From an uncultured bacterium (GTDB lineage Bacteria; Omnitrophota; Omnitrophia; Omnitrophales; Aquincolibacteriaceae), in the NCBI GenBank assembly GCA_964410905.1, contig CAYPIR010000002.1, positions 14,665 to 78,664 of the forward strand: DNA of 64,000 bases. Reading direction: 5' to 3'. The stretch's first letter is position 1; each line of letters opens with the position of its first letter. The notes below the pieces were generated by a model. The model saw only the letters and a program-made list of their open reading frames with translations. It was not told where the DNA came from and did no database searches. The translations under genes and the position numbers were made by a program. Of the stretch, positions 1,702 to 32,052 are shown piece after piece.

Positions 1702-3558
1702 ATGAAAAAAGCCGTATTATTTTTTGTTGTGTTTGTCTTTTCCTCTCCCTTTGTTTCAACTCTTTTGGCGGAACCAATAGTTGGCATTTCCAAGGTTGAT
1801 TCGCCCGCGCCTTCTTCGGCGGGAATTTCATTTTCTGAAAATTATAACCAGCCTCAGTCCGCGCAAGTATCGTCCACGTTGCAGTACGCGGACGAAAAAG
1901 ATAAAGCGATGACGGACGCCATTTCCCAGAATGCGGCCAATGATAAAACCGGTGTAAATACAAATGTCCAGTCTCTTCGCGATGAACGAAGTCGCGAAAT
2001 GCCGTATCTTGATAAAATTTTTATTCGTTCTTCTATTACGACGGAACGTTCGCAGCGGCGGAATGAGTTTTTGCAAGGCGGACCAAAAACTTTGCAGGAT
2101 TTAATTCGCAGGGCGTTGGAAACTCATACGCAAGCAAAAGCTTCTCGTGAGAACATCAATCTTTATAATAGACGAATGATTGTCGCGCTTCGCAAGCTAT
2201 TTCCCGACATAACTTTCGACTTTAATTCGCGCGAAGGTACGCAAAACTCTTATCCGTATCGAGGGACAGATTATCATATATCCCTTCGCCAGCCTTTGTA
2301 TAAAGGAGGAATGCTGTGGAACGCGTTTTTACAGGAAAGAGCAAGCCTTGAAGCAGCAAAAAAACAATACGATAAAACGATAGCCGAACTCGTGTTTGAT
2401 TTGTCGAAATCTTATTTTGAATACCAACGCGCTGAGCAAACCGTAAAAGAATATCAATCTTTAGTCGCAAAAATGAAAAAATACGCGGATTTGACGGAAC
2501 AAAAGTTTCAAGAGAAACTTATTTCGGAAATGGAGCGCTTGAACGTTCAGTCGATTTACAGTCAAATGAATTTTGATTTAGAAGATGCCAATCAGGAATT
2601 TGAAATCGCCAAATTGGAACTTCAAAAATTTTTGGATTTAGAAGTTGAGGATTCTATTCAAGTAGAAAGTCTTTATAACATTGATGGAGTGCTCGCTTAC
2701 GCAGGAGACGCGAACGCGGCGCTCTCAGCATCGGGGCAAACCGCAAATGTTTTGGGCGATGACACAAAACCACCTGAGCTGCCTAAGCTCATTGACCTTT
2801 CGTATGGCTATCGACCTGAACTGCAAGTTGAAGCGGCACGGCTTCAAGCGGCACGGCTTGGTGAACGCATTAAGTGGGGCGAACTTTTACCGCAGGCGTA
2901 TTTGACCTATAAATTTGGAGAATTCGGCGAAGCGTATACCGCGGACGGCGCAACTCAACAGAGTTGGTATAAAGAGCGTCCCGGATATAAAACGCGCCCT
3001 GACCTTAAAAAAGAATGGCAAATTATGTTGGAGGTTAATTGGAATATCGGCGGAAACCGCGCGACATATTCTTATGACAATGATAATAAGGCACCGGCGC
3101 TTACAACTTATGGCGGAGCGGATAAAAGCAAGGTTAAGAAGCATCACTTTAGTTTGGGGATTTTGGACGGCCTTGACGCGTTTGTTAATTTGAAGCAGGC
3201 GGAAGTGGAAAAACTCAATCAGATTGTCGAGCTGGAAAAAACTGAAAAGCAGGTTTTGCAAGATGTTAAGACTGCTTATTACAGTTATCAGAAAGCGTCT
3301 ATTCAAACAAATTCTACAGTGAAGAGATTGCAATATCGCAAACGTCTTCGTGATTATACCGAGCATAGACTTGGTAAAAAAGAAGTAGAAGTGCCCGAAT
3401 ATATGCAGTCGGAAGTTGACCTTGTAAAAGAAAAGAGAGATTTGCATCAGGCGATAGAGGATTATCTCGCGGCACAAGCCTCTCTTAATCACGCGGTAGG
3501 CATTCAGGATTTACTTGCTTACTGGAGATTGAACGCTCAGCAGCAGTCGCAACAATAA
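1702..3558 (+). CDS. TolC-family outer membrane efflux protein (with S/Q-rich N-terminal extension)
   Basis: Signal peptide MKKAVLFFVVFVFSSPFVSTLLA. Long coiled-coil-rich repeats consistent with an outer membrane factor. RBS AAGGA upstream. Sits immediately upstream of the adaptor and RND permease genes. Confidence 0.7.
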   Translation: MKKAVLFFVVFVFSSPFVSTLLAEPIVGISKVDSPAPSSAGISFSENYNQPQSAQVSSTLQYADEKDKAMTDAISQNAANDKTGVNTNVQSLRDERSREMPYLDKIFIRSSITTERSQRRNEFLQGGPKTLQDLIRRALETHTQAKASRENINLYNRRMIVALRKLFPDITFDFNSREGTQNSYPYRGTDYHISLRQPLYKGGMLWNAFLQERASLEAAKKQYDKTIAELVFDLSKSYFEYQRAEQTVKEYQSLVAKMKKYADLTEQKFQEKLISEMERLNVQSIYSQMNFDLEDANQEFEIAKLELQKFLDLEVEDSIQVESLYNIDGVLAYAGDANAALSASGQTANVLGDDTKPPELPKLIDLSYGYRPELQVEAARLQAARLGERIKWGELLPQAYLTYKFGEFGEAYTADGATQQSWYKERPGYKTRPDLKKEWQIMLEVNWNIGGNRATYSYDNDNKAPALTTYGGADKSKVKKHHFSLGILDGLDAFVNLKQAEVEKLNQIVELEKTEKQVLQDVKTAYYSYQKASIQTNSTVKRLQYRKRLRDYTEHRLGKKEVEVPEYMQSEVDLVKEKRDLHQAIEDYLAAQASLNHAVGIQDLLAYWRLNAQQQSQQ

Positions 3559-5128: not shown

Positions 5129-8100
5129 ATGAGTCTCCCGGAATTTTCGATAAAGAAAAAAGTAACGATTTATATGTTCACGCTCGGGCTAATATTGCTC
5201 GGCATTCTTTCTTTTAAACGCCTTCCTCAAGATCTTTTTCCACCAATTACATTCCCGCAAGTTACTATCGTAACGGATTATTCAAACGCCGCTCCCGAAG
5301 AAATCGAGACGCTTGTTACGCGTGTGATCGAAGAAGCTGTCGGCTCTGTCGCGGGATTGAAGCGCATTGAGTCTGTGTCTCGCGAGGGACGAAGCACAAT
5401 TATGGTGTCGTTTAACTGGGGGCAGGATATTGATTTCGCGGCGCTCGCGCTGCGTGAAAAAGTCGATCTTATAAAAGAACGTTTGCCTAAGGAGTGCGAA
5501 GACCCTGTCGTCTTGAAGTTTGATCCGCTTTCTCGCCCGATACTTTTGCTTTCTATTACCGCGCCGGATCTTCCTCCAGTCCGGATGAAGCTGCTTGCTG
5601 AAAAAATGGTAAAAGACCGTCTTGAAAAAGTTGAGGGCGTGGCATCGGTAAATTTATCGGGCGGCGTTAACCGTGAAATTTTGGTTGATATTGACGGCTC
5701 GCGTCTTCAAGCAAATCACTTATCGCTTTTGCAAGTCGTGGATTCACTGGACGAAGCAAATGTGTCATATCCCGCGGGAAGCATCAAAAAAGGTTTGTAT
5801 GAATATTTGATTAGAACAGTCGGGGAATTTAGGTCGCCTGCGGAAATTGAATATGCCGTTGTTGGAGTCGATACGGTTGAGAAGATGCGGCGCGAAGAAA
5901 CCAGTTTTGTGGAGAAAGATGCGGGTTACGGACCGCGCGAAACAATAGAAAAAATCCGAAGCGAACTTGAGAAACAAACACTTGAAAAACGTCTGGTAAC
6001 GGTAAAGGACATTGGCAAAGTCGTGGACGGATTAGCCGAAAAGACCAGCGTTTCTAGATATAACGGATCGGAAAATATTTCCGTAGCGATTCAAAAGCAA
6101 TCTAATGCCAACACTATTCAGGTTGTTGACCGGCTGCGCAAGGAATTAGAATTTTTAGAAGAGGATTTTCATTCCCGCGGTCTTGATGTGAAAATCATAT
6201 ATGACCATTCGACATTTATCCGCAACACCATTGAAAACCTTGCTCATGAGGCGGTGCAAGGCGGTATTTTGGCGCTTATCACGCTATACATTTATTTGCG
6301 GGCGGCGGCGATGTCAGCTCTTGTTATCGTCTCATTGCCGCTTACGATTTTGGGCGTTTTCTTTCTAATGAGTCTCGCGGGCGTAACTGTCAATATTATG
6401 TCTCTTGGCGGTCTCGCAATCGCGATTGGTATGATTACGGATACCAGTATCGTTGTGCTTGAAAATATTTTCCGCAAGCGTCAAGAAGAAGGACTTGAAC
6501 CGGAAAAAGCCGCGATTGACGGAGCTACTGAGGTTGTTTGGCCGGTTGTGTCATCCAATCTTACAACCATCGCCGTTTTTTTTCCGTTGATTGTTTTTGT
6601 GCCCGGAGTTGCGGGACAGATTTTTAAAGATCTTGCGTGGGCGATTATTTTTTCTCAGGTTATTTCTACCTTTGTTCCTCTTACGCTCGTCGCGATGCTT
6701 TCCATTTATGTAAAAGTTCAGCAGCAAGATTCGAAGCCGCTTAGCATTACAGGAAATCTTGATAAGAAAATTCTCTCAATGCGGACGCCGGATGAACAGA
6801 ATCGTTTGATGATAGGTATTTTGCTTTCCGCGTTTTTGCTTCTCGCGTCAACATTTATGATTGTCCCGTCAATTGATCGCGAAGTGTTGCCCAAAGTTGA
6901 CCAAGGACAATTTTACGTAAAAGTAGACATGCCGATTGGCGTCAGGCTTCGCGTAACTGACGATGTGTGCAAACGAATTGAAAAGGTTTTAAGATCAGAT
7001 AAAGACGTTAAGGATATTTCGGTTTCTATTGGAAGTGAAAAGTCTTCTAAAGGTGAAATTAAAGTTGAGACGCTTCGCGCTTCGCAGGCTTTGATACTTG
7101 TTACTTTGAATCCCGAAAGAGAGAGGCCGTCTTCTCAGGTCGTGGAATTCTTGCGGCAAAAAGTTGACGAATTGCGGCTTGAAAAAGACGACGCTAAAAT
7201 TGCGTTTGTTTTGCAGGAAAGCGATTTTGCTGTCGCGGGTTCATCCTCAAAGCCTGTTGTGCTTGAAGTTAAAGGTTATGACTTTAAGACAATGGATGAT
7301 TTGGTTGAGCGGCTCAAAAAACGTTTGTCCGAGATTCCCGGCATTCGTGATGTCCAGGACGACATTGGAGAAAAATCCCCAGAAACAAAACTTGATATTA
7401 ACAAACGCCGCGCCGCGCTTTACGGCGTTTCCGCTATGGATATTTCACTTACCGCGAAAGCTGCGATTGAGGGCGTCATCGCGACTCAGTATCGTGAAGC
7501 GGGCAGAGAGGTTGATGTCCGAGTCCGCTTAAGCAACAAAGACCGAGAAAATATCAGCAATATTGGTTCGTTGCTTCTTTACTCCAAAGTTTTAGATGTT
7601 CACATTCCGCTTAAGGAAATCGCTAATATAGAACGAGGTTTGGGTCCCAGCGAGATTAAGCGTATGGATCAAGAACGCACGGTTACAGTTTCTGCCGATA
7701 TTGATAAAACGCGGCAGGATAAAGATGTTTTGTTAGATGTTCAAAGGTTTTTGCAAGGGCTTAGGGTCCCGGAAGATATTCCGCAGGATTTTCAGGTTAA
7801 ACTCTCGGGCAAAGCAAAGGAAATTAAAGAAAATTTCGGCGGAGTTATTTTTGCGTTCGTTCTTGCCATTATGCTTGTATATATGATTATGGCGGCTCAG
7901 TTTGAATCCTTTTTGCAGCCGCTTATCATTATGGTTACAGTCCCGCTTTCATTTGGCGGGGCGCTTATCGCTCTAAAACTTACGGGGACATCGTTTAATG
8001 TTATCTCACTTTTAGGCCTTGTCCTTCTCGGAGGAGTTGTTGTCGGTAACGGTATTGTTTTGATGGAATATATTAATCAACTTCGCTCAGAGGGAAAAGA

Positions 8101-14452: not shown

Positions 14453-15106
14453 GTGAAAAAAGCAGTTTTTTTTGACATAGACGGAACGCTCGTTTCCTGC
14501 CAAACACAAAAGGAGTTGGCGAACGCGATGTTTGATGCGCAAATGATAAGATCAATGCATTTGTTGCAGATATGGATTTGGTTCGCGGGATATTATTTAG
14601 GGTTTGTTAAAAGCACAACGGATATTCGTAAAAAATTTTATCATTTTTTTTCTTTTTTTGAAAAAGAGAAAATCGATTCGCTTTTATTAAGTACCTATGA
14701 GAATCGAATTCGTCCCCAAATAAGAAGAGCATTGGTGGATGTTGCTCGGAAATTGAAAGAACAAAACTATGTCGTTGTGGCGGTTTCTGGAACACTTCAG
14801 CAGTTTTGCGATTTTCTTAAAAGAGATTTGAATTTTGATGACGCTTTTGGAACGCGCCTACTGGAACAAAAAAAACGTTACGCGGGCGCTTGGGAAGGCG
14901 ACATATTGGAAGGGGAATTTAAAAGTCGTTTCATAGAAAATTACGCCAAAGAACATGATATTGATTTACGAAAAAGTATTTGTTATGCCGATAGTCATAC
15001 AGACATTAAAGCAATGAAACTTTTTGGTGAAGCAGTAGCGGTCAGACCCGACGCTAAATTAAAAAAAGTGGCAGAACTCAACCAATGGAGAATTATTGAT
15101 GAGTGA
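14453..15106 (+). CDS. HAD-superfamily subfamily IB hydrolase (SerB-like fold)
   Basis: GTG start with RBS AAAAGGAAG. HAD motif I FFDIDGTLV, a cap region, and a C-terminal D-containing motif (YADSHTDIKAM). Confidence 0.75.
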   Translation: MKKAVFFDIDGTLVSCQTQKELANAMFDAQMIRSMHLLQIWIWFAGYYLGFVKSTTDIRKKFYHFFSFFEKEKIDSLLLSTYENRIRPQIRRALVDVARKLKEQNYVVVAVSGTLQQFCDFLKRDLNFDDAFGTRLLEQKKRYAGAWEGDILEGEFKSRFIENYAKEHDIDLRKSICYADSHTDIKAMKLFGEAVAVRPDAKLKKVAELNQWRIIDE

Positions 15107-17402
15107 GTTTTTGAAAAATCAATACGCTATTTCCGCAATATTGACTTCTGTTACAACTTTTTTGTTGGCGGTAATTGTCTGGGGGAAAAATAACAAGCGA
15201 AAACTTAACAGAATTTATTTATTTTGGGCATGTTCTATAAGTTTTTGGGCTTTTTCGCTTTTTCTTAGCCTTTACGCAACTGATGCGAATACGGCTCTTG
15301 TTTTTTCAAAATTGTTGCATTTATGGGCAATTATATTGCCATCGGTTTACGTGCACTTTGTCTTGTCATTTCTTAAAGAAACTGAAAAGTTCAAAAAAAT
15401 TATAAATGTTTCTTATGGCGTAGCGCTATTTTTAATTCTTTGCAACTTCTCTCCTTGGTTTCTAAATGTTAGTTATCAAGAAGCATTCGATTTTTACGTT
15501 ACTAAACCTCTTATGCTTTATCCGATTCATATGGTTGTTTTTGCCGCTAGCGTTTTATTTGCCATTCTTCGCCTTTATGTAAGCTTCAGAAAAAGTAGCG
15601 GGCTTGAAAAAAAACAAATAGGAGTGTTCTTCTTTTCTTCCATCATAGGCTATTCGGGAGGCCTCACAAATTATCTAATTAATTATAATATTTCTATATT
15701 TCCACTTTATCCGTTTGGGAATTACACCATTTGTGTTTATGTCCTAATGATGGGATTTGGGATTTTGCGCTACAAACTTTTGGACATTCACATCATTATT
15801 AGACGGACATTTGTGTTTGCCGGATCGTTTATTTCTTTGTGGTTTATGGTCGCTTTGCTTACCATTCTTTTTAGAGATTATTTAGACCAATACATAAATG
15901 TAACGCCAAGGGTTTCTCGGGGCATTTCTATTTTGGTAGCTATGTTTTTATTTGATCCGCTGAGAAACTGGCTGACAAATTTTACTGATAAGTTTCTTTT
16001 TCAAAAGAAATATGATTATCACAAACTTTTAAAAGATGCTTCGCGTGGAATGTCGAATATTGAATCGCTAGAGCATCTTTTGGGACTTGTCGCGCATTTT
16101 ATTACGATGAAAATGCGAGTTAAAAATGTGGCGGCGCTTATGCTTTTGCATGGCACAACGGATAAATATGGTTTGGTATATCAACGAGGTTTTGAAAAGA
16201 AACAATTATCATTTTCATTGGACAAAAATGATGCGCTTATCAGATACTTGAACGAGCACAGAGAAGCTATTGACAAAGACATTGTTAAAGAAGATTTGGA
16301 ATCATCATTCATAACAACATTCGACTACAATGAAATTATAGGGAAAATGGATGAGTTGAGAGCGGGCTGCTGCATCCCGAGTTTTCTTGGGAAAGATTTG
16401 AAAAGTATTTTGTTTATAGGCTCCAAAAAGTCCGGAGAAGATTTTTCTTCTGAGGATTTAAGTCTTCTTTATACACTCGCGCAAGAATCGTCCATAGCTA
16501 TTGAAAACGCGCGGCTATATGATGAGGCTGTGAATAGGTCTCAAGAATTGCAAGGTATTAACGACAGGTTGGAAATTTCAAAACGTGATTTGGCGGAAGC
16601 TTTAAGAAAAGCGGAAATCGCGAATTGTCAATTGAAAGAAACACAAATGCAGCTTGTCCATGAGCAAAAAATGGCAACGCTTGGAAGACTGGCGGCGTCT
16701 GTCGGGCATGAAGTCAACAATCCTTTGACTATTCTTTCTATGAATGTTTCACGCGTGATTTTAAAGCATCGCAAAAGTGGAGATTTGAAAGTAGCGGACA
16801 TTTTGGAATATCTTAAAAATATGGAAAAAAGCATTGAACGAATAAAAGCGGTCGTAAACACTTTAACGGGACTTTTGAAGAAGTCAGAAAAAGGACAGTT
16901 TGAACCTCTGTCGCTCAAGTTGATTTTAGAAGAAACATTGCCATTAGTTCAGTATCAAACTTATTTGGATAATCTTTCAGGGACAGAAGTTGATTTGAAT
17001 GTGTCGGGCGGCGTTCCTCTTATTCGCGGAAATTTAGAACGGTTGCAGGAAGTTTTTTTAAATCTTTTTATAAATGCTTATCACGCCATGGAAGGGCGGT
17101 TGAATAGAAAAATTTGCGTAAAAGCGACCTTGGATCCGCAAGACGCAAATATGATAAGCATTCTTTTTACGGACAATGGTTCGGGAATGAGTCCTGAGAT
17201 TGCGAAAAAGGTTTTTAATTATGGATTTACGACAAAGGCTTCGGGCAAAGGTTCCGGGCTTGGGCTTTATATGTGTAAGTATATTATTGAACTGCACGGC
17301 GGCTCAATAAGTGTGGATACCAAGTTGGGCGAGGGCACAACTTTTGCTCTGAAATTACCCATCTGCACGGAAGAATCTCTTTTATCGCAAACGTCTGCGT
17401 AA
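15096..17402 (+). CDS. Sensor histidine kinase with about 8-9 TM N-terminal sensor domain
   Basis: The N-terminal third is a multi-pass membrane domain. HisKA H-box SVGHEVNNPLTIL. HATPase N/G boxes (NAYHAM, DNGSGM, GSGLGL). Overlaps the upstream gene by 11 nt. Confidence 0.85.
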   Translation: MMSEFLKNQYAISAILTSVTTFLLAVIVWGKNNKRKLNRIYLFWACSISFWAFSLFLSLYATDANTALVFSKLLHLWAIILPSVYVHFVLSFLKETEKFKKIINVSYGVALFLILCNFSPWFLNVSYQEAFDFYVTKPLMLYPIHMVVFAASVLFAILRLYVSFRKSSGLEKKQIGVFFFSSIIGYSGGLTNYLINYNISIFPLYPFGNYTICVYVLMMGFGILRYKLLDIHIIIRRTFVFAGSFISLWFMVALLTILFRDYLDQYINVTPRVSRGISILVAMFLFDPLRNWLTNFTDKFLFQKKYDYHKLLKDASRGMSNIESLEHLLGLVAHFITMKMRVKNVAALMLLHGTTDKYGLVYQRGFEKKQLSFSLDKNDALIRYLNEHREAIDKDIVKEDLESSFITTFDYNEIIGKMDELRAGCCIPSFLGKDLKSILFIGSKKSGEDFSSEDLSLLYTLAQESSIAIENARLYDEAVNRSQELQGINDRLEISKRDLAEALRKAEIANCQLKETQMQLVHEQKMATLGRLAASVGHEVNNPLTILSMNVSRVILKHRKSGDLKVADILEYLKNMEKSIERIKAVVNTLTGLLKKSEKGQFEPLSLKLILEETLPLVQYQTYLDNLSGTEVDLNVSGGVPLIRGNLERLQEVFLNLFINAYHAMEGRLNRKICVKATLDPQDANMISILFTDNGSGMSPEIAKKVFNYGFTTKASGKGSGLGLYMCKYIIELHGGSISVDTKLGEGTTFALKLPICTEESLLSQTSA

Positions 17403-17413
17403 AGGTGCGAAAA

Positions 17414-17776
17414 ATGAAAAAAATTTTAATTGTGGACGATGAGGTCGGGATACTTGAGGAAGTGAAAAGTTTTTTAGAAGAAGAAGGTTTTTCTGTTCAG
17501 TCTGCCGATACGGTGAAGGAAGGAATCGTGCAGTTAATTTCCTTCGCGCCTGATCTTGTTATAATTGACGGGAAGCTTCCGGACGGCTCTGGGGTTGATG
17601 TTTTGCGTTCTATTCGTGACCAATCTTTAGAAACAAAAGTTATTATTTCAACGGGTTATGTTGATCAGTCTTTTATCGATGAAACCAATGCTTTAAAAGT
17701 AAATCTTTTTTTGCAGAAACCTTATGACCTCGTGCGGCTTCTTGATGAAGTCCGAAGAGTTTTTGCGATGGAATAG
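17414..17776 (+). CDS. Single-domain response regulator (CheY-like receiver)
   Basis: ILIVDDEVGI, phospho-acceptor Asp in DLVIIDGKLPDGSG, conserved STGY and LQKPYD. Start chosen at the ATG with RBS AAAGGTG (an in-frame GTG lies 9 nt upstream). No output domain. Confidence 0.8.
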   Translation: MKKILIVDDEVGILEEVKSFLEEEGFSVQSADTVKEGIVQLISFAPDLVIIDGKLPDGSGVDVLRSIRDQSLETKVIISTGYVDQSFIDETNALKVNLFLQKPYDLVRLLDEVRRVFAME

Positions 17777-17832: not shown

Positions 17833-18372
17833 ATGAATTTTATAAAAACAACGATAGAAAATTTAATAGTGATTGAGCCGAAAGTTTTTAATGACGAGCG
17901 AGGCTTCTTTTATGAAAGTTATCAAAAGAGAATTTTTGAAGAAAATGGCATTTTAGATAATTTTGTTCAGGATAATGTTAGCCATTCCTCAAAAGGCGTT
18001 TTGCGTGGGCTGCATTTTCAACGACCGCCGCATGCTCAGTCAAAACTTGTCCGTGTTGTTCGCGGCTCGGTTTACGACGTGGCGGTTGATATTAGGCAAG
18101 GCTCAAAGACTTTCGGACAGCATTATGGGCTTGTTCTTTCAGCGGAAAACAAAAAGATGCTTTTCATTCCCAAAGGATTTGCGCACGGTTTTTGTGTTTT
18201 GGAAGATGAGACGGAGTTCGCTTATAAATGTTCTGATTTTTATTCGCCTAAAGATGAGACCGGAATATTATGGTCTGATCTAAACCTTGCGATTAAATGG
18301 CCTAAGCTGGATGTCCCGTTTATTCTCTCCGATAAAGATAAAAAATATCCTCCATTAAATGAAGCCATTTAA
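17833..18372 (+). CDS. rmlC: dTDP-4-dehydrorhamnose 3,5-epimerase
   Basis: MNFIKTTIENLIVIEPKVFNDERGFFYESY and the RGLHFQ/HGF segments are typical of RmlC cupin epimerases. Confidence 0.85.
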   Translation: MNFIKTTIENLIVIEPKVFNDERGFFYESYQKRIFEENGILDNFVQDNVSHSSKGVLRGLHFQRPPHAQSKLVRVVRGSVYDVAVDIRQGSKTFGQHYGLVLSAENKKMLFIPKGFAHGFCVLEDETEFAYKCSDFYSPKDETGILWSDLNLAIKWPKLDVPFILSDKDKKYPPLNEAI

Positions 18373-18763
18373 AAACCCCGCAGCTCTAACATTAGTTTTG
18401 TGCGCCTTATTTTTGCTGGGATGTTCCAAAATTGATTCCGATAATTTACAGTTGCGAATTTTTTTGAATTTTCCTTATGGCTATGAATTGACGCAAGGCG
18501 CTCCGCAGTCTTTGTCGTGGCAAATTGAAAGTGAGAACAATGAAAAACTTCCGCCTGCCCAAGATAAAAATTTTGATCCCTTTAAACGCCCTTATATATT
18601 GAGTGTTCCACTAAATGTGAAAATGAAAAGTTTGCGCCTAAAAGCAAAACTGTCGTATTGTGAGAGTAGAAATAAAACGTGTTTTCAAGATGATTTTGAC
18701 GCGGTTATTCTAGTGAATGAACTAAACAAAGATTTTATGTGGAATGTTGTTCCTGAGGAATAA
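18359..18763 (+). CDS. Putative lipoprotein, unknown function
   Basis: Lipobox-like LFLLGCSK after a hydrophobic leader. Overlaps the rmlC stop. No recognisable domain. Confidence 0.5.
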   Translation: MKPFKNPAALTLVLCALFLLGCSKIDSDNLQLRIFLNFPYGYELTQGAPQSLSWQIESENNEKLPPAQDKNFDPFKRPYILSVPLNVKMKSLRLKAKLSYCESRNKTCFQDDFDAVILVNELNKDFMWNVVPEE

Positions 18764-18994: not shown

Positions 18995-19139
18995 TGTTTG
19001 TTTGAATTTGTTTCCCCGTGTTTAATACGTTGTTTATATAAAGATATTTGAAGTCGTCCTTGCCTTGCTAATCCATAAAAATGTGCTACTGTTTAGCCGT
19101 ATCGATTAATCAAAATTTGTTAGGAAAAGGAGTGTTCTT

Positions 19140-22100
19140 TTGAAGGCTATCGCTTCGTTTTTTGTTGCCGTTTTTATTTCCGCTCAAATATTTATCCCTA
19201 TAACTTTTGCGGCCAGACCGCTTTCGATATTTTCCGATCCTTCAGGGAAAGACGCAGTTGACTCGGCAAAGCTCAATGTTTCTCAAGGAGTAAGCTCAAC
19301 AAATCGAAGCGATGACCGCACAAAGGCCCATTCGTCTCCTGCCGACTTAAAAAAACTTTGGGAAGAGGGTGTGCGCGTTGACAAATATTCTCTCGATGGG
19401 ATTAGTTATGAACAAGTTGCGGGCGCTCGCGGATTTAAAATCGCAAAAATACCAGGAAGATATGCTATAGAAGCAGAACACAATAAACCGGTTTTTGAGG
19501 ACCACTCCGTAGATCTTCCATATGATGAAACTAAGCCGACTTTTAGCAAAGTTGTCCGGGAAAAGCCGGATCAGACTTTGCTAAAAACAGAAATTGAAGG
19601 AATCCCTGTTTATTACAATCGAAATTGGGCGCCTCTTTTACCATATCACTTTCTGGTGTTGATTGACCCTGATGCTAAACGAAATCAGACTATAGATGAA
19701 AAGTCTCTTTTTATTGCTTTAACCGCGCTTGAGAAAATTGGCGACAGAAGGTCTTTTCTTGCTATGAATGTCGGATATGCTGCCGGCGCTTCTATTAATT
19801 CGCAACATTTTCAAGGCTCATTTGCCGAGAAAGCAAGAGTTGAGAGACGACCTGTTGGAAAAGAGATTTTTAAAACGGGTTATGATTACATAAATGTTTG
19901 GGAGTTTGCCGATGATGATGAACCAGCTTTTATTGTGGATGCTCCTTCAAAAGAAATACTTGCTAAAACGGCGACTGTAATTTCTGATTACTTAAAATTG
20001 TTAGATATCCCGTCCAACATCTTTTTCCGCGTTCCAGAACAAGATAAGTCTTGGAGATTGTATATAGAACCTCGGTCGCGTGTTCGGTCCCAGCTTTTTC
20101 CCGGCAACGTTGCGTGGATGGAAGTTATGCTAGGACAATTTTTTAATGATGGCGCAGTTGAGTTTACGGAAGAAAATATATTGGAGGCTTTAAAAACGGC
20201 AAGCCTTTCGCGCTCCGAGTTTGATGTTTTGAAAAAATATCTGCCTCGATTTTTTGCGGAAAGAGAAAATGGAGAATCTGCTAGAGCTGTTATTGAGACT
20301 CTGAAGAATGAAATAATGCCTTTTCAGCCTAAGCCCACAAAGTCTGAAGTCCGCCACGGCATTTTAAATAATGCTTTTGATTTGATAAAAGATTCTTCGC
20401 TGGAGAATAAAGCAAAGAGACTTGGTGAAAAATTGGCGCAAACGGTTGATTTGGATATGTTTGATAGCGCACGTGAGATTTTAGAATCGTCCAGCGGAAC
20501 ATTTAACGCGGAAACCGCAAGTGAGGTTTTGGAAAAAGTTTTTCCATTTATAGAACAAATGAATTCTATCAAGCGGTATAGTCCGACAGGAGAGACGACA
20601 ATATGGACGCATTCGGCTCGCATTGCGAATATGAGTGATTCTTTGGGAGTTGACGAGGATAAATTTTACGCGGATTTTGGCGGTATTTCGTATAAGGGAG
20701 AAAAGCTTTCTGACGCGACTTGGAATGAATATGCGGAATTGCAGCAGGAGTTTTTTCAAGGCAGCAAAGAAAATCGTCTTGCGTTGCGGCTTACGGCGCT
20801 TTTTCATGATATTGGAGTTCTCATTCAAATGCAATCTCATGAGCCGGTTGGCGCGATTGTTGTGAATGACATTTTAGAAAAACTTCCGATAGCGGAAGAG
20901 ACAAAGCAGCTGATTTTATGGGGAGTGGCAAATCATCTTAATCTTGGCGTTATGGGGTTGGGCGAACGAACTCCATCTTATGCTAAATCGAGATTGGATA
21001 TTTTGCCCGAAAATTTGCGGCGGTCAGCAAGCGCTCTCATGACTTTGATTCAGGCAGGAGAGGTCCGCTCGCTTGTTGAAATAAAAGATAACGGAAAACT
21101 TTTTAACGGGCGGTCGGCTGGATTTTATGTTGATGTCGCGAATACTGAAAAGTTTGCCAAGCTCTCGGCTGATTATGACGACTATCGCTTGAGGATTTTT
21201 TCTTCAAATGGCAACTGGATTTTAGATGAAAAAAAATACGCTGAGGTGAAACGTTTGATAGCGGAAGAAATACCAAAATCAGAGCGCCAGCAGTTTGAAA
21301 AATACTTGAGAGAAGTAAATGAATGGACTGACTACGGCGCATATATCATGCAAGAACTTTCAGCCCGCGGAGTCGTTCTTGCTCATTATCTTTTGAGTCA
21401 AGTTTCCAAGATTTATGACAATAAGATTAGACGTTTTCAATTAACCGCGCCGAGAAACGCCGCGAAGGCGGAGGCGCGCGGGCTTGATTTGTTTTTCTCT
21501 ATTGATAAAACAACTTTTTCCGATTTGGCGGTGGCAGGGAAAAACCCTAAGCAAATTAAAGCTATCTTTGAAAAATTTAAAATATCAGTTCCTAAATCTA
21601 AGGCGTTCATTAAATTTGATACGGATGCTTTTAAGGATTTGGGGAATATCGCGATAAATAGTGTTTTGAATACAGAAACGCCAGTTGTGGCGTTTGTCGA
21701 TGCCGCCGATTTCGCGGAAATGTCAAACGCGCAGAAAAAAGAGTTTGTGCTTGTGGCGGCCAAAACCAAGTCAGTAAAGATAGTAGTTTATAACGATAAC
21801 GGGGAACGAAATGAATCGGCAGCAGAATTATTAAAGCTGCCTAGAGTGATTGCGACCAATAAGGATTTGGCGGAAGCGGCAAAAGAGTTTGGCGTTGATA
21901 AAGTAACAGCGGTGCAAATATCAAAGACTATTGAGCCGAAATATTTTGATGCAAGGGTAGGATATTTTAAAGCGACTAGTGATGCGGGCGGGATTTTGGC
22001 GGTGGCAATTTTATGGGCGATATCCGGTGGGGAAAACGCGAGGATTATTGGCATACAAAAATACGGACGGTTCTGGGCAGTGGACGAGACTTTTCTTAAT

Positions 22101-22151
22101 TTAATTCAACATGAGATAGAAGCGAATTATGCAATAAACATCGCGGTGTAA
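19140..22151 (+). CDS. Large secreted multidomain protein: GDP-hexose phosphorylase (VTC2/GDPGP1)-like HIT domain + HD phosphohydrolase domain
   Basis: TTG start with strong RBS AAAAGGAG. Signal peptide MKAIASFFVAVFISAQIFIPITFAA. Residues about 150-230 carry LLPYHFLVLIDP and VGYAAGASINSQHFQ, resembling the GalT-branch HIT motif of GDP-L-galactose phosphorylases (...GYNSLGAFATINHLHFQ). Residues about 545-600 carry LRLTALFHDIGVL...NHLNLG, an HD-domain signature. Confidence 0.8.
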   Translation: MKAIASFFVAVFISAQIFIPITFAARPLSIFSDPSGKDAVDSAKLNVSQGVSSTNRSDDRTKAHSSPADLKKLWEEGVRVDKYSLDGISYEQVAGARGFKIAKIPGRYAIEAEHNKPVFEDHSVDLPYDETKPTFSKVVREKPDQTLLKTEIEGIPVYYNRNWAPLLPYHFLVLIDPDAKRNQTIDEKSLFIALTALEKIGDRRSFLAMNVGYAAGASINSQHFQGSFAEKARVERRPVGKEIFKTGYDYINVWEFADDDEPAFIVDAPSKEILAKTATVISDYLKLLDIPSNIFFRVPEQDKSWRLYIEPRSRVRSQLFPGNVAWMEVMLGQFFNDGAVEFTEENILEALKTASLSRSEFDVLKKYLPRFFAERENGESARAVIETLKNEIMPFQPKPTKSEVRHGILNNAFDLIKDSSLENKAKRLGEKLAQTVDLDMFDSAREILESSSGTFNAETASEVLEKVFPFIEQMNSIKRYSPTGETTIWTHSARIANMSDSLGVDEDKFYADFGGISYKGEKLSDATWNEYAELQQEFFQGSKENRLALRLTALFHDIGVLIQMQSHEPVGAIVVNDILEKLPIAEETKQLILWGVANHLNLGVMGLGERTPSYAKSRLDILPENLRRSASALMTLIQAGEVRSLVEIKDNGKLFNGRSAGFYVDVANTEKFAKLSADYDDYRLRIFSSNGNWILDEKKYAEVKRLIAEEIPKSERQQFEKYLREVNEWTDYGAYIMQELSARGVVLAHYLLSQVSKIYDNKIRRFQLTAPRNAAKAEARGLDLFFSIDKTTFSDLAVAGKNPKQIKAIFEKFKISVPKSKAFIKFDTDAFKDLGNIAINSVLNTETPVVAFVDAADFAEMSNAQKKEFVLVAAKTKSVKIVVYNDNGERNESAAELLKLPRVIATNKDLAEAAKEFGVDKVTAVQISKTIEPKYFDARVGYFKATSDAGGILAVAILWAISGGENARIIGIQKYGRFWAVDETFLNLIQHEIEANYAINIAV

Positions 22152-22319
22152 TGGAGTAAGTATCGAAAGTTCTCCATTGTATATAAATATAAAAAAATTT
22201 TAAAATCCGCTTTTAGAAGTGGATTTTTTTTTGTCTCGTGATAGAATCCGCCATTCCGGAAAGCTGGGAAATGTTACAAGGTATTGCAAATTAGTTTAAC
22301 CAACCTACAGGAGACAAAG

Positions 22320-23825
22320 ATGTTTATCTCTAAGAAATTTCTTGCTCTGTTGCTCGTGGTCGGAACTGCATTCACACTTTCCGGTTGCGCAACTTGTTGC
22401 ACAGATAAACCGGCAGCTTCGAAAAGCGGAGTAATCCGTGGTTCTATCGGAGTTCCAGATTGCGAAAAATCCACAAGCCCACTTCACATTGATAAGGAAG
22501 CCCCTAGCCAAGTGGTTGTCGGCAGACCTTATTCTTACACAATTACCGTTAAGAACGCGTCCAAATGCGCTCTCGAGGACGTAGTTGTAACAGAACGCGT
22601 TCCTGAGAAGTATGAACTCAAGACCGCGACGCCTACGCCTACTAAGGTTACTGGTCGCGTGGCGCAATGGGATATCGGTTATTTGAAACCGGGAGAAGTT
22701 AGAACCATCACTATTACTGGTGTTGCGTTGGACGCTTCTTCAACAACTGCTTGCACGAAGGCAACTTACAATCCTGTTCTTTGCCTTGGTCCAGAAGCAA
22801 TTTCTCCTGCTTTGAAAGTTGCTTTGGAAGCACCTAGCCAAGCACTTCTTTGCGATGTTATTCCCGCTAAGATTATTGTAAGCAATACGGGAACTGGTTC
22901 TGCGGAAGGTGTTTCAATCACCCAAGCATTGCCTGACGGCTTGACAACCACTGATGGGAAGAACACCGTAACTATTAACGTTGGTGATCTTGCTGGTGGC
23001 GCATCTAAGAATTATGCGGTCAATCTCAAAGCATCTCAGGCTGCAAAGTATTCCAATAAAGTTAGTGCCGTTTCTAAAAACGGTCTTTCCGCTAGCTCCA
23101 GTGTGGTTGTTACAGATGTAAAACAACCGTCATTGAAAGTCGCGGTAAGCGGTCCTTCCAAGATTTTTTCTAACAAGAACGCTGATTTTAAAGTCAATGT
23201 TCAAAACGTTGGAAGTGCTGACGCGGCAAACGCAGTTGTCCAAACCACGATTCCTGCTGGATTCAAATTTGTTTCAGCGGATCAGGGCGGAGTTGCTTCC
23301 GGTAATGCGGTTGTTTGGAACATCGGAACTCTTGCTGCCGGAAAATCTGCTGCTTTGAATACCACATTCAAAGCGGTTAGTGCTGGCGCTGGACAAAGCG
23401 TTGCAACGGCAAAGGGAACTTGCTGTTCTGAAGCTTCTGCTGTTACTAACAGTGAAATTAAAGGTATCCCTGCTGTTCTTTTAGAAGTTGTTGACAGCGA
23501 TGACCCGATTGAAGTTGGTGATGCGGTAACATATTATATTACTGTTACCAACCAAGGTTCTGCAGATGACACTAACATTGTTATCAAATCCGCTCTTGAG
23601 GACGAATTTGATTATGTCTCTAGCAGTGGACCTACGAAAGCAAAGGTTGAATCTGCGAAGGCTGTGGAATTTGCAGCTCTTGCGGTTTTGAGACCAGGCG
23701 AAAAAGCGACATGGGCAGTTGTTGCAAAAGCCGTTGCTGAAGGAGATCATCGTTTTGCGACTAAGTTGACGAGCGATGCTCTTAGAACATCGGTTGATGA
23801 AACGGAATCTACTCATACATATTAA
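22320..23825 (+). CDS. Cysteine-rich lipoprotein with tandem DUF11 (conserved repeat) domains, OmcB-like
   Basis: RBS GGAGA. Lipoprotein signal LLVVGTAFTLSGCATCC. At least three repeats of the DUF11-type beta-sandwich pattern (PS/QALLC..., VKQPSLKVAVSGPSK...NVQNVGSADA, DPIEVGDAVTYYITVTNQGSADD). Confidence 0.75.
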   Translation: MFISKKFLALLLVVGTAFTLSGCATCCTDKPAASKSGVIRGSIGVPDCEKSTSPLHIDKEAPSQVVVGRPYSYTITVKNASKCALEDVVVTERVPEKYELKTATPTPTKVTGRVAQWDIGYLKPGEVRTITITGVALDASSTTACTKATYNPVLCLGPEAISPALKVALEAPSQALLCDVIPAKIIVSNTGTGSAEGVSITQALPDGLTTTDGKNTVTINVGDLAGGASKNYAVNLKASQAAKYSNKVSAVSKNGLSASSSVVVTDVKQPSLKVAVSGPSKIFSNKNADFKVNVQNVGSADAANAVVQTTIPAGFKFVSADQGGVASGNAVVWNIGTLAAGKSAALNTTFKAVSAGAGQSVATAKGTCCSEASAVTNSEIKGIPAVLLEVVDSDDPIEVGDAVTYYITVTNQGSADDTNIVIKSALEDEFDYVSSSGPTKAKVESAKAVEFAALAVLRPGEKATWAVVAKAVAEGDHRFATKLTSDALRTSVDETESTHTY

Positions 23826-24144: not shown

Positions 24145-24228
24145 TGGGGAGTAGTGGATTTGAACCACTGAAGGCTAGACGCCAACAGATTTACAGTCTG
24201 TCCCCTTTGGCCACTCGGGCAACTCCCC
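24145..24228 (-). tRNA. tRNA-Tyr (anticodon GTA), type II with long variable arm
   Basis: Reverse complement is GGGGAGTTGCCCGAGTGGCCAAAGGGGACAGACTGTAAATCTGTTGGCGTCTAGCCTTCAGTGGTTCAAATCCACTACTCCCCA. Acceptor stem GGGGAGT/ACTCCCC, anticodon loop CTGTAAA, T-loop TTCAAAT, long variable arm. No CCA encoded. Confidence 0.85.
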
Positions 24229-24256
24229 TAGAAGAAACAGAAGAAAATTTCAGAAT

Positions 24257-24328
24257 AGCTGGTGGAGGGATTTGAACCCCCGGCCCGCTGTTTACAAAAC
24301 AGCTGCTCTACCCCTGAGCTACACCAGC
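24257..24328 (-). tRNA. tRNA-Thr (anticodon TGT)
   Basis: Reverse complement is GCTGGTGTAGCTCAGGGGTAGAGCAGCTGTTTTGTAAACAGCGGGCCGGGGGTTCAAATCCCTCCACCAGCT. Acceptor stem GCTGGTG/CACCAGC, D-arm GCTC..GAGC, anticodon loop TTTGTAA, T-loop TTCAAAT. Confidence 0.85.
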
Positions 24329-30474: not shown

Positions 30475-32052
30475 ATGGAAAAAGGTTTTCTTTCCATAGT
30501 CCTTCACGCGCACCTTCCATTTGTCCGCCACCCCGAACATGATTTTTTTTTAGAGGAAAGCTGGCTTTACGAAGCGATTACTGAAACATATATTCCGCTG
30601 ATTCATATGTTTGAGGGTTTAGAGCGTGATGGCGTTCCGTGGCGGCTGACAATGTCGCTTACTCCTTCTCTTATGTCAATGCTGCGTGATGAACTCTTGC
30701 AAGAGAGATACATCAAGCATATTGATAAACTTATTGAGCTTTCCAGCAAAGAAATTGAGAGAACTCGTTTTATGCCAGATTATCACGAGACGGCTCTCTA
30801 CTATTATTGGGAATTTACTCGTGCCAAAGAAACGTTTGAAAAACATTACGGAAGAGATTTGACGAAAGCTTTTCGTAAATTTCAAGACGCCGGAAAATTA
30901 GAAATCATCACATGCGGAGCGACTCACGGATTTTTACCGCTAATTAGTAGAAATGAAGGAGTTGTCCGCGGACAAATTAAAACAGCTGCCGATCTTTACG
31001 AAAAAGTTTTAGGCTGCAGGCCTAGAGGAATTTGGCTGCCTGAATGCGGATTTTATGCGGGAGTTGACAAATATTTAAAGGAGCAGGGAATTAAATACTT
31101 CTTAACGGACACTCACGGGATATTGCACGCCTCGCCGCGTCCCAAATACGGTGTGTTCGCCCCAATATTTTGTCCAAGTGGAGTTGCCGCGTTTGGACGG
31201 GATGTGGAATCTTCCAAACAAGTTTGGTCAGCAATAGAGGGTTATCCGGGGGATCCGGACTATAGAGAGTTTTATAGAGATATTGGCTTTGAACTGGATT
31301 TCGACTATATCCGCCCTTACATCGCGCCTGACGGACTTCGTATTAATACTGGAATTAAGTATTACAGAATAACGGGAAAGACGGAGCATAAAGCACCATA
31401 TGTTCGTTCGTGGGCTATGCATAAAGCTGCAAGCCATGCTGGAAACTTTATGTTCAACCGTGAAAAGCAGGTTGAATACTTATTTGATTTCATAGGTCGT
31501 AAGCCTTTGATTGTCGCTCCGTATGACGCTGAACTTTATGGACATTGGTGGTATGAAGGTCCTGATTTCCTAAACTTTTTCATACGCAAGGTTGCGTATG
31601 ATCAAAAAACTTTTAGGCTTATCGCGCTGCCGGATTATTTTAAAGAATATCCCGTTAATCAAATTTCAACGCCGAGTTTTTCAAGCTGGGGCTATAAAGG
31701 CTACAGTGAGACTTGGCTTTCTGGCGTGAATGATTGGATTTATAAGCATCTGCACAAAGCTTCGCTTAGAATGACCGAGCTTGCCGGACGGTATCGCGGG
31801 CAAAACGGAACTACAGCGAGGGCTTTAAAGCAAGCCGCTCGTGAACTTTTTCTAGCGCAATCAAGCGATTGGGCATTTATTATGCATACAGGAACTATGG
31901 TTCCGTACGCGGTGAAGCGCACCAAAGTTCATTTGTCGAATTTTACGAGAATTTACGATGATTTGACGAAAGGTAGAATGGATGAAAGTTGGCTGAGCGA
32001 GCTGGAGCGGAAAAATAATATTTTTCCAGATGTGGATTGTAGTGTTTTTTAA
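30475..32052 (+). CDS. GH57-family 1,4-alpha-glucan branching enzyme
   Basis: N-terminus LSIVLHAHLPFVRHPE...ESWLYEAITETYIPLI matches the GH57 (DUF1957) signature of TK1436-type branching enzymes. Confidence 0.85.
   Translation: MEKGFLSIVLHAHLPFVRHPEHDFFLEESWLYEAITETYIPLIHMFEGLERDGVPWRLTMSLTPSLMSMLRDELLQERYIKHIDKLIELSSKEIERTRFMPDYHETALYYYWEFTRAKETFEKHYGRDLTKAFRKFQDAGKLEIITCGATHGFLPLISRNEGVVRGQIKTAADLYEKVLGCRPRGIWLPECGFYAGVDKYLKEQGIKYFLTDTHGILHASPRPKYGVFAPIFCPSGVAAFGRDVESSKQVWSAIEGYPGDPDYREFYRDIGFELDFDYIRPYIAPDGLRINTGIKYYRITGKTEHKAPYVRSWAMHKAASHAGNFMFNREKQVEYLFDFIGRKPLIVAPYDAELYGHWWYEGPDFLNFFIRKVAYDQKTFRLIALPDYFKEYPVNQISTPSFSSWGYKGYSETWLSGVNDWIYKHLHKASLRMTELAGRYRGQNGTTARALKQAARELFLAQSSDWAFIMHTGTMVPYAVKRTKVHLSNFTRIYDDLTKGRMDESWLSELERKNNIFPDVDCSVF

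Follow-up and report, generated by a model that had tools for sequence, protein, structure and literature searches.

A Predicted Exported HIT and HD Phosphohydrolase Protein as a Short Member of a Modular Multi-Enzyme Family of Omnitrophota

Introduction

What might a bacterium do with a nucleotide-sugar phosphorylase outside its cytoplasm? The question is raised by a gene in a 64,000-nucleotide stretch of DNA from an uncultured bacterium of the phylum Omnitrophota (contig CAYPIR010000002.1; the whole stretch is hereafter called the window). Its uninterrupted open reading frame (ORF), 19140..22151 on the forward strand with a TTG start, encodes a protein of 1003 amino acids (about 110 kDa), which the original prediction, made from the nucleotide letters and their translations, described as a HIT domain of the GalT branch joined to an HD phosphohydrolase domain behind a Sec signal peptide. 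Known GDP-hexose phosphorylases are mainly enzymes of plants, animals and some protists, and are cytosolic; here a clear homologue stands behind a putative export signal and is fused to an HD module, in an uncultured and possibly predatory or parasitic phylum.

We set out below the evidence for the reading that we favor with somewhat better than even confidence, namely that the protein is a Sec-exported, cysteine-free HIT and HD enzyme, a minimal member of a family of giant proteins, which would break down nucleotide-sugars or dinucleotides outside the cytoplasm in a cofactor-free manner. With its 1003 residues it is also a tractable protein, tied to the enigmatic giants of the Omnitrophota through its leader, its C-terminal domain and a variant of their linker motif.

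Results and Discussion

Relatives and Modular Layout

A word-indexed homologue search with the whole protein returned a single match, the window protein itself, and one with an alignment of its N-terminal enzyme module (module A) returned a single match that was already in the query alignment, P0070. An exhaustive phmmer search of 1.84 billion representatives gave 72 proteins. Mapping these relatives back with phmmer and jackhmmer splits the window protein into modules A, B and C, each of which recurs independently of the other two; with the leader and linkers they are arranged as follows.

19140..19211 (+), leader, residues 1-24, MKAIASFFVAVFISAQIFIPITFA, with K2 in the n-region, a hydrophobic core of 13 residues and T-F-A at the end of the c-region
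19212..19328 (+), Ser/Asp/Lys-rich linker after the leader, residues 25-63, its composition read directly and no homologues aligned
19329..20234 (+), module A, about residues 64-365, a GDPGP1/VTC2-type (GalT-branch) double-HIT domain by hhalign, Foldseek, AlphaFold model and motif table
20340..20354 (+), K-S-E-V-R, residues 401-405, in the linker between A and B, the window copy of the motif R-S-E-[MVILA]-R
20382..21647 (+), module B, about residues 415-836, a helical lead-in, HD core and extension of about 230 residues, by phmmer/jackhmmer mapping and alignment
20601..21074 (+), HD phosphohydrolase core within module B, residues 488-645, by Pfam HD and profile comparison with the PDB
21648..22148 (+), module C, residues 837-1003, a C-terminal alpha/beta (Rossmann-like) domain, by conservation and AlphaFold model

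Most of the relatives are proteins of 2,000-6,500 amino acids in which modules A and B occupy various positions, their order and number varying. The two modules are adjacent, and in the order seen in the window protein, in P0027, and both are present in P0035 and in the giant L006, so that the HIT and HD pair, for which the original prediction had proposed a search of other genomes, is found to recur. The same prediction had called the combination one that was not known. It is unusual, and no account of it came up when the literature was searched for bacterial GDPGP1 combined with "HD domain", but the pair recurs within a modular giant-protein family of the Omnitrophota. Smaller relatives combine module A or module B with UDP-glucose pyrophosphorylase, glucose-6-phosphate isomerase, phosphodiester glycosidase (NAGPA), DUF218 or metallophosphoesterase domains, a sugar-nucleotide theme that we count in favor of the enzymatic reading given above.

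Module A Is a GDPGP1/VTC2-Type HIT Domain by Profile and Predicted Fold

Comparisons at the level of sequence profile and predicted fold establish module A as a complete GDPGP1/VTC2-type HIT domain of the GalT branch. Aligned by hhalign, module A together with five relatives matches six database-named plant GDP-L-galactose phosphorylases with a probability of 99.93% (E value 5.8e-36) over 294 columns that span both lobes, at about 21% identity. The VTC2 sequence that served as query in the searches below is 92% identical to a database GDP-L-galactose phosphorylase, and the hhalign comparison used database sequences only. An AlphaFold model of module A was obtained with a predicted local distance difference test score (pLDDT) of 68.8 and a predicted template modeling score (pTM) of 0.77, its model residues 155-159 and 173-181, around the motif loop, lying below a pLDDT of 50. 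Foldseek gives as its best PDB match the yeast diadenosine tetraphosphate (Ap4A) phosphorylase Apa2 (E value 5.7e-7, probability 1.0, template modeling (TM) score 0.5-0.6, about 330 columns). Ranks 1-17 comprise Apa2, a DUF4931 protein, the Arabidopsis ADP-glucose phosphorylase At5g18200 (GalT-like), uridylyltransferases and E. coli GalT, and no unrelated fold comes ahead of rank 18.

The precomputed Pfam label on the window protein is PF26217, PF26216 not being listed, and among the relatives found with the VTC2 query 120/120 of the matches listed carry both PF26216 and PF26217, most of them being named GDP-L-galactose phosphorylases. Our local copy of Pfam-A gave no HIT or GDPGP1 match for module A and likewise none for the VTC2 sequence, because it apparently does not hold PF26216 and PF26217. 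Searched against PDB sequences, the module A profile gave matches to the HIT superfamily only, all with E values above 0.2 (Apa2, 0.26, non-significant). Taken on the hhalign alignment, the Apa2 and GalT-like structures at the head of the Foldseek list and the PF26217 label, the assignment to the GalT branch made in the original prediction is upheld.

The module A family has the blocks LWxDR, VQxNPGR and APxLxYHFLLIP in common, and the window protein reads LLPYHFLVLIDP at residues 166-177 and AMNVGYAAGASINSQHFQG at residues 208-226. Its hallmark is ASINHLHFQG in five stand-alone relatives and ASINSQHFQG in the window protein. The second histidine of the HxHxQ motif is the nucleophile that becomes nucleotidylated in GalT/HIT enzymes. 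The window protein keeps this residue (His223) and Gln225, as well as Asn210, Asn220 and His170 (in YHFLV); the prediction had read SQHFQ in just this way, with the first His lost and the second His and the Gln retained, and the motifs it quoted lie where it had placed them. Module A is thus like VTC2, VTC5 and GDPGP1 in being homologous over the whole two-lobed domain, in the blocks WxDR, QxNxGR, an HxLLIP-type His and N-S-x-G...IN-x-x-H-F-Q, and in keeping both the nucleophile His and the phosphate-favoring Gln. Unlike these enzymes, the window protein has Ser for the first His, a bacterial host, a signal-peptide-like leader and a fusion to HD and C-terminal modules. GDP-L-galactose phosphorylase is a HIT enzyme in which a missing triad histidine favors phosphate over water as the acceptor, and its family is described as largely plant and metazoan, with some protists (PMC11066809). 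Apa2 (PDB 4I5T/4I5V/4I5W), the best solved structural match, is also a phosphate-dependent HIT enzyme of the GalT branch; unlike the window protein it is cytosolic and single-domain, and it shares 12-13% identity with module A.

Module B Contains an HD Phosphohydrolase Core

For module B, profile matches identify an HD metal-dependent phosphohydrolase core, in keeping with the original call. Pfam HD scores 22.0 bits on the whole protein, 24.6 on residues 501-660 and 23.8 on module B, at a cut-off of 22, and reaches up to 46.3 bits in module B relatives. A seven-sequence module B profile matches in the PDB the helical lead-in and HD domain of the Aquifex aeolicus A-adding enzyme (E value 1.5e-4), followed by a Cas10 HD domain, an HD hydrolase and PhnZ, and NCBIfam adds weak matches to the HD region of GlnD that lie far under the cut-offs (18 bits vs 519). 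Candidate metal ligands are His491, His556-Asp557, His567 and His599, two of the motifs concerned being LFHDIGVL (residues 554-561) and VANHLNLG (residues 596-603); a GERxP motif at residues 608-612 is conserved among module B relatives.

The C-terminal 350 or so residues had been described as free of recognizable domains. They are better divided in two: residues 605-836 share the conservation of the HD core, the whole unit of about 420 residues forming one block in relatives, and residues 837-1003 make up a separate family domain. The description does hold insofar as neither part matches Pfam or PDB sequences (0 matches for residues 605-836 in either). Like class II CCA/A-adding enzymes and GlnD, the window protein has an HD hydrolase fused behind a nucleotidyl-transfer domain; unlike in those enzymes, whose transfer domain is a Pol-beta-type nucleotidyltransferase, the upstream domain here has the HIT fold, and the extension of about 230 residues after the HD core has no counterpart in them.

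Two other identities were considered and rejected as noise: a second-messenger/SMODS one, whose match (E value 0.055) is under the cut-off, and an anti-phage defense one, for which PADLOC gives just a Cas3-HD match (E value 0.005, 15 bits). Nothing here supports the suggestion in the original prediction that the protein could act on nucleotide second messengers.

A Family-Conserved Leader Points to Export

By inspection, the leader divides into an n-, h- and c-region of MK, AIASFFVAVFISA and QIFIPITFA, followed by A, with a predicted signal-peptidase I site between A24 and A25 (T at -3, A at -1); the Kyte-Doolittle peak covers residues 3-21. It aligns with the leaders of full-length giants such as P0011 (LKTIASFIVLSFVATQILIPTPTSFA), and a second class of giant leader reads RRVTAIFVILAFTLFDAGRYAPQSYA. 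All family leaders have a basic n-region, a hydrophobic core of about 13 residues, a polar c-region and small residues at -3/-1. The window protein moreover has no Cys in 1003 residues vs a window background of 0.89% (P = 1.2e-4), and its giant relatives have 0.25%. Elsewhere in the window, the products of 1702-3558 (+) and 60007-62991 (+), of 618 and 994 amino acids, are also Cys-free and have signal-peptide-like leaders. From these compositions, a lack of Cys seems to go with export in this genome, and the window protein is probably exported by the Sec pathway; the signal peptide of the original prediction is thus plausible on the grounds of the n-h-c division, the conservation of the leader in the family and the lack of Cys.

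The same leader could be read as an uncleaved N-terminal anchor, with modules A, B and C facing the cytoplasm as part of a membrane-bound sugar-nucleotide metabolon. The hydrophobic stretch amounts to about 19-20 residues if read to F23, relatives carry typically cytoplasmic enzymes, a gene 770 nt upstream codes for RmlC, a nucleotide-sugar enzyme of the cytoplasm, and in a preprint on the phylum many long proteins of Omnitrophota are read as anchored in the inner membrane with their domains in the cytoplasm (10.64898/2026.06.07.730766). We nevertheless hold this arrangement to be quite improbable: Lys or Arg-Arg before the helix, a polar c-region and small residues at -3/-1 make up the signature of an exported protein and not of an N-out anchor, and the window protein is as free of Cys as the other signal-peptide proteins of the window. 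DUF218 and NAGPA domains, which co-occur with modules A and B in relatives, are moreover usually extracytoplasmic.

Module C and the Giant-Protein Family

Module C is found at the extreme C-terminus in 41/41 of the relatives that carry it (42 sequences with the window protein), and that of the window protein is 34-44% identical to the C-termini of proteins of 2,000-6,500 amino acids. AlphaFold, from a 26-sequence alignment, models it with confidence (pLDDT 87.2, pTM 0.85) as a doubly wound alpha/beta domain ending in a long helix, for which Foldseek finds in the PDB generic Rossmann-like folds only (a GT-A glycosyltransferase, PPAT and NeuC; best E value 0.0097, TM score at most 0.40); there are no PDB or Pfam sequence matches. 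The blocks VDAxDF, VVYN, HLSK, FFK and G-x-LAxAxLWAxSGGE are invariant or nearly so, and the last residues are nearly always A-A. Because its terminal position is fixed across very different proteins, module C most likely serves the family as a whole, for instance in targeting, anchoring or assembly. Scanning genomes with the module C alignment gave nine loci, four of them (4/9) titled Candidatus Omnitrophota or Omnitrophica, and in 9/9 module C ends a gene of at least 2,770 codons or one running to the edge of the stored DNA. The window itself is placed in this phylum by the product of 30475-32052, described further below.

Right after the leader, the giants share a conserved N-module of about 500 residues (FIQDAHDSLEAQ...LVYGGFHA), which the window protein does not have. 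Its further motifs are FIQDAHDSLEAQENIAK...VFEEGYEG...LVYGGFHA and its identity between proteins is 58-62%; it lies at L007:2210-3889 and in the first 560 or so residues of P0009, P0011, P0012, P0035 and others. A scan of 13 giants showed no recurrent Pfam family that would account for it, nor does its profile match PDB sequences; its motifs may resemble those of the ChaN/TraB/Tiki superfamily. Between N-module and module C the giants carry HD domains, GT1 glycosyltransferases, APH-type kinases, radical SAM enzymes and NAD-dependent epimerases/GDP-mannose dehydratase, and further ARMT1, HAD, methyltransferase, GlnD-type, DUF218 and deaminase domains.

Judged by its leader and its terminal module C, with a variant of the R-S-E-x-R linker between A and B, the window protein is a short, minimal member of this modular multi-enzyme family of Omnitrophota, and no smaller complete one was found. 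The family resembles the "multi-enzyme metabolic cluster" long proteins of Omnitrophota as described in two reports (10.1101/2023.11.21.568195; 10.64898/2026.06.07.730766): both come from the same phylum, join many unrelated enzyme domains in one polypeptide, among them HD, GT1, radical SAM, HAD and methyltransferase, and begin with an N-terminal signal peptide or transmembrane segment. Unlike those long proteins, the window protein has just 1003 residues and two enzyme modules. Term searches of both reports gave no mention of the leader, the N-module, the C-terminal domain, R-S-E-x-R or a GDPGP1-like module.

A Linker Motif at Module Boundaries

The modules of this family are punctuated by a short motif, R-S-E-[MVILA]-R. 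Among the 72 proteins there are 167 copies of SE[VMLIA]R, where composition predicts 17.7; R precedes 151/167 of them, and their flanks are otherwise unconserved. It stands 5-60 residues before module C in most proteins, 9-20 residues after module A and 11 residues after a full-length module B, and never inside module A or B; in the genome loci its density is 1.58 per 1000 amino acids in family ORFs vs 0.026 in flanking ORFs, a difference of about 60-fold. The window copy, K-S-E-V-R, sits exactly at the A/B junction and is the sole [RK]SE[VMLIA]R in any window ORF of at least 50 amino acids; the window protein has no such motif before module C.

The codons used at the motif are biased as well. 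With the same genes as background, its Ser is TCC in 30/42 copies (background 22%, p 1.8e-11), its Glu is GAG in 33/42 (41%, p 8.6e-7), and its first Arg is CGN in 42/42 (about 72%, p 2.1e-6) and specifically CGC in 22/42 (17%, p 2.5e-7). The coding consensus is CGC TCC GAG ATG CGG, and the window copy reads AAG TCT GAA GTC CGC. This bias suggests a constraint at the level of nucleic acid, besides or instead of one on the peptide. The motif may be a site of processing, may mark where recombination occurs or cassettes meet, or may act as a signal in the mRNA. A literature search for it found nothing relevant. More specifically, R-S-E-x-R might mark where the parts join in a system of cassettes or polyproteins, one that places variable enzyme modules between a fixed leader (with the N-module) and a fixed C-terminal domain, the joints being proteolytic sites or nucleic-acid sites for shuffling or mRNA processing, and the window protein being cut into a free GDPGP1-like phosphorylase and an HD-plus-C fragment; this we put forward as a tentative possibility, on balance doubtful. 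Being specific to boundaries, the motif is at any rate a concrete candidate for a cleavage point in the giants, and the window protein, with its single K-S-E-V-R, is the smallest natural test case. In a separate locus, L004, positions of about 5600-7930 hold three consecutive units of about 256 amino acids; as each ends in the identical linker DNA GGA GCA CGG TCC GAG GTG CGA AGC GAA, a recent tandem duplication of module plus linker is indicated there.

If the motif is a cleavage site, the protein may be a processed and delivered effector, secreted beyond the periplasm, cut at K/R-S-E-x-R into a free HIT enzyme and an HD-plus-C fragment, and acting inside a host or prey cell, a place rich in nucleotide-sugars, where it would deplete cell-wall precursors. 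The motif's enrichment at module boundaries and absence from module interiors, with the window copy exactly between A and B, would fit such a fate, as would the cofactor-dependent enzymes of the giants, which would work only inside a cytoplasm, and the low Cys content, which is typical of proteins that travel unfolded. West-Roberts et al. propose that Omnitrophota giants are cleaved after translation and that these bacteria live as predators; in their words it is not known if the giants are cleaved, or at which points (10.1101/2023.11.21.568195). Delivery of this kind appears unlikely to us all the same: no protease for the linker site was identified, conservation at the codon level (TCC, GAG) points at least partly to a role of the nucleic acid, the window motif has K for R and non-consensus codons and is missing before module C, and no secretion-system genes were found near the target gene.

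Proposed Function and the Points against It

Under the reading that we favor, the protein would first be exported, to break down nucleotide-sugars or dinucleotides on the far side of the inner membrane. His223 would then attack the alpha-phosphate of a nucleoside-diphosphate-X, either a nucleoside diphosphate (NDP)-hexose or a dinucleoside polyphosphate, and the resulting covalent nucleoside monophosphate-His intermediate would be resolved by inorganic phosphate to give NDP and hexose-1-phosphate or its equivalent. The HD module would finally hydrolyze a phosphate ester or anhydride of the product and return phosphate. Both GDP-L-galactose/GDP-D-glucose phosphorylase and Ap4A phosphorylase use the chemistry so proposed for module A. 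For phosphorolysis a HIT enzyme of the GalT branch requires phosphate only, and an HD hydrolase requires a metal ion only; because neither step needs ATP, NAD or S-adenosylmethionine (SAM), the A and B pair could act outside the cytoplasm. Its role may be the salvage or destruction of nucleotide-sugars or nucleotides from the surroundings, a host or prey, for instance through depletion of cell-wall precursors. Should both enzymes indeed work outside the cytoplasm, nucleotide-sugar scavenging or sabotage would have a place in how ultra-small Omnitrophota cells exploit others.

A functional analogy is offered by E. coli UshA, a periplasmic UDP-sugar hydrolase/5'-nucleotidase that splits nucleotide-sugars from outside the cell, yielding sugar-1-phosphate, nucleoside and phosphate, which can then be taken up: like UshA, the window protein is proposed to break down nucleotide-sugars in exported and cofactor-free form. 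The two are unrelated in fold. UshA consists of a metallophosphoesterase and a 5'-nucleotidase C-domain, neither of which was detected in the window protein, and it acts by hydrolysis, where the window protein would act by phosphorolysis.

A number of points weigh against this proposal. The substrate of the window protein is a guess and its catalysis is something that we infer. Pairing of A and B is optional in the family, several module-A proteins having no module B. The complete H-x-H-x-Q motif is not found, S221-Q-H223-F-Q225 having Ser in place of the first His; the GFNSLG block reads AMNVGY; and in P0003, the closest relative at 38% identity, the nucleophile His is gone (PQYFQ), so that this subclade may be drifting from catalysis. 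In module B, the HD score lies at the Pfam threshold, and the last acidic HD ligand is Glu641, where most relatives have Asp. The radical SAM, NAD-dependent epimerase, GT1 and kinase modules of the giants, lastly, normally need cytoplasmic cofactors, and a periplasmic site of action therefore fits the family poorly, a difficulty from which the two enzyme modules of the window protein are free.

The replaced first His, the degenerate GFNSLG block, the missing nucleophile in P0003 and the low pLDDT around the motif loop could also mean that module A is no catalyst at all, but a nucleotide- or sugar-phosphate-binding pseudoenzyme that presents a ligand to the HD module, or a structural domain. 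We think this rather improbable, given that the nucleophile His and the other four motif residues listed above are all kept in the window protein, and that other members with a residue other than His at the first position keep the nucleophile as well (Ser in the second copy in P0057, Gln in P0070 and P0024).

Integrity of the Gene

The signals that flank the gene are the following.

19127..19132 (+), ribosome-binding site AAGGAG, with a 7-nt spacer to the TTG, read from the sequence
22202..22237 (+), terminator-like hairpin at 22202-22227, downstream of the target gene, with an 11-bp stem, a 4-nt loop and then a T-run

The strong ribosome-binding site and TTG start given in the original prediction are borne out. 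The stop-to-stop frame opens at 19110, just 30 nt 5' of the TTG, so that a longer reading is impossible, and there are no alternative starts. Logan assemblies of two other sequencing runs, SRR11845625 and SRR11845624, independently contain the first 2233 nt of the gene without a single mismatch, and in them the gene callers picked the same TTG start; the final 780 or so nucleotides have no independent copy. A frameshift artifact is thereby excluded in at least the first 744 codons. The gene had also been said to stand alone between terminators: this is shown for the downstream side, with its hairpin, and not for the upstream side, where simple consensus scans of the 145-nt gap that separates the gene from a YggU-like one gave 0 terminators and 0 sigma-70-like promoters.

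The gene might conceivably be a decaying remnant, left when an internal deletion in a giant gene fused the leader to the last modules, and without a function of its own. The missing N-module, the lack of a motif before module C and the K-variant motif with its non-consensus codons would agree with such an origin. We regard it as very improbable: the 3-kb ORF is uninterrupted and comes with a strong ribosome-binding site and a terminator, its sequence is identical in independent metagenomes, and catalytic residues are conserved in both enzyme modules.

Genomic Context

No neighbors are common to all family loci, and those of the window protein never recur beside the giants. Just upstream of the RmlC gene, 15096-17776 (+) encodes a seven-transmembrane (7TM)-receptor histidine kinase (HisKA_7TM, HisKA and HATPase_c) and a single-domain response regulator; no link between these genes and the target gene was established. 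An ORF of 134 amino acids (18359-18763, +) shares 14 nt with the final part of the RmlC gene; it has a lipobox-like leader (LFLLGCSK) and no Pfam match, and is also called as a gene in the independent assemblies. The next gene downstream of the target, 22284-23825 (+), encodes a protein of 513 amino acids in which the DUF11 repeat occurs four times and which also matches the domain of Chlamydia cysteine-rich outer membrane protein 6 (OmcB); with 10 Cys and a lipoprotein-like leader ending in LSGC, this is a PVC-type envelope protein adjoining the Cys-free target. Adjacent genes for tRNA-Tyr(GTA) and tRNA-Thr(TGT) at 24145-24328 (-) are the only Rfam matches of the window. At 30475-32052 (+), lastly, lies the gene of a 525-residue DUF1957 protein (GH57-type glucan branching enzyme-like), which falls into one cluster, at 90% identity, together with HNX68969.1, itself a DUF1957 protein labeled Candidatus Omnitrophota bacterium.

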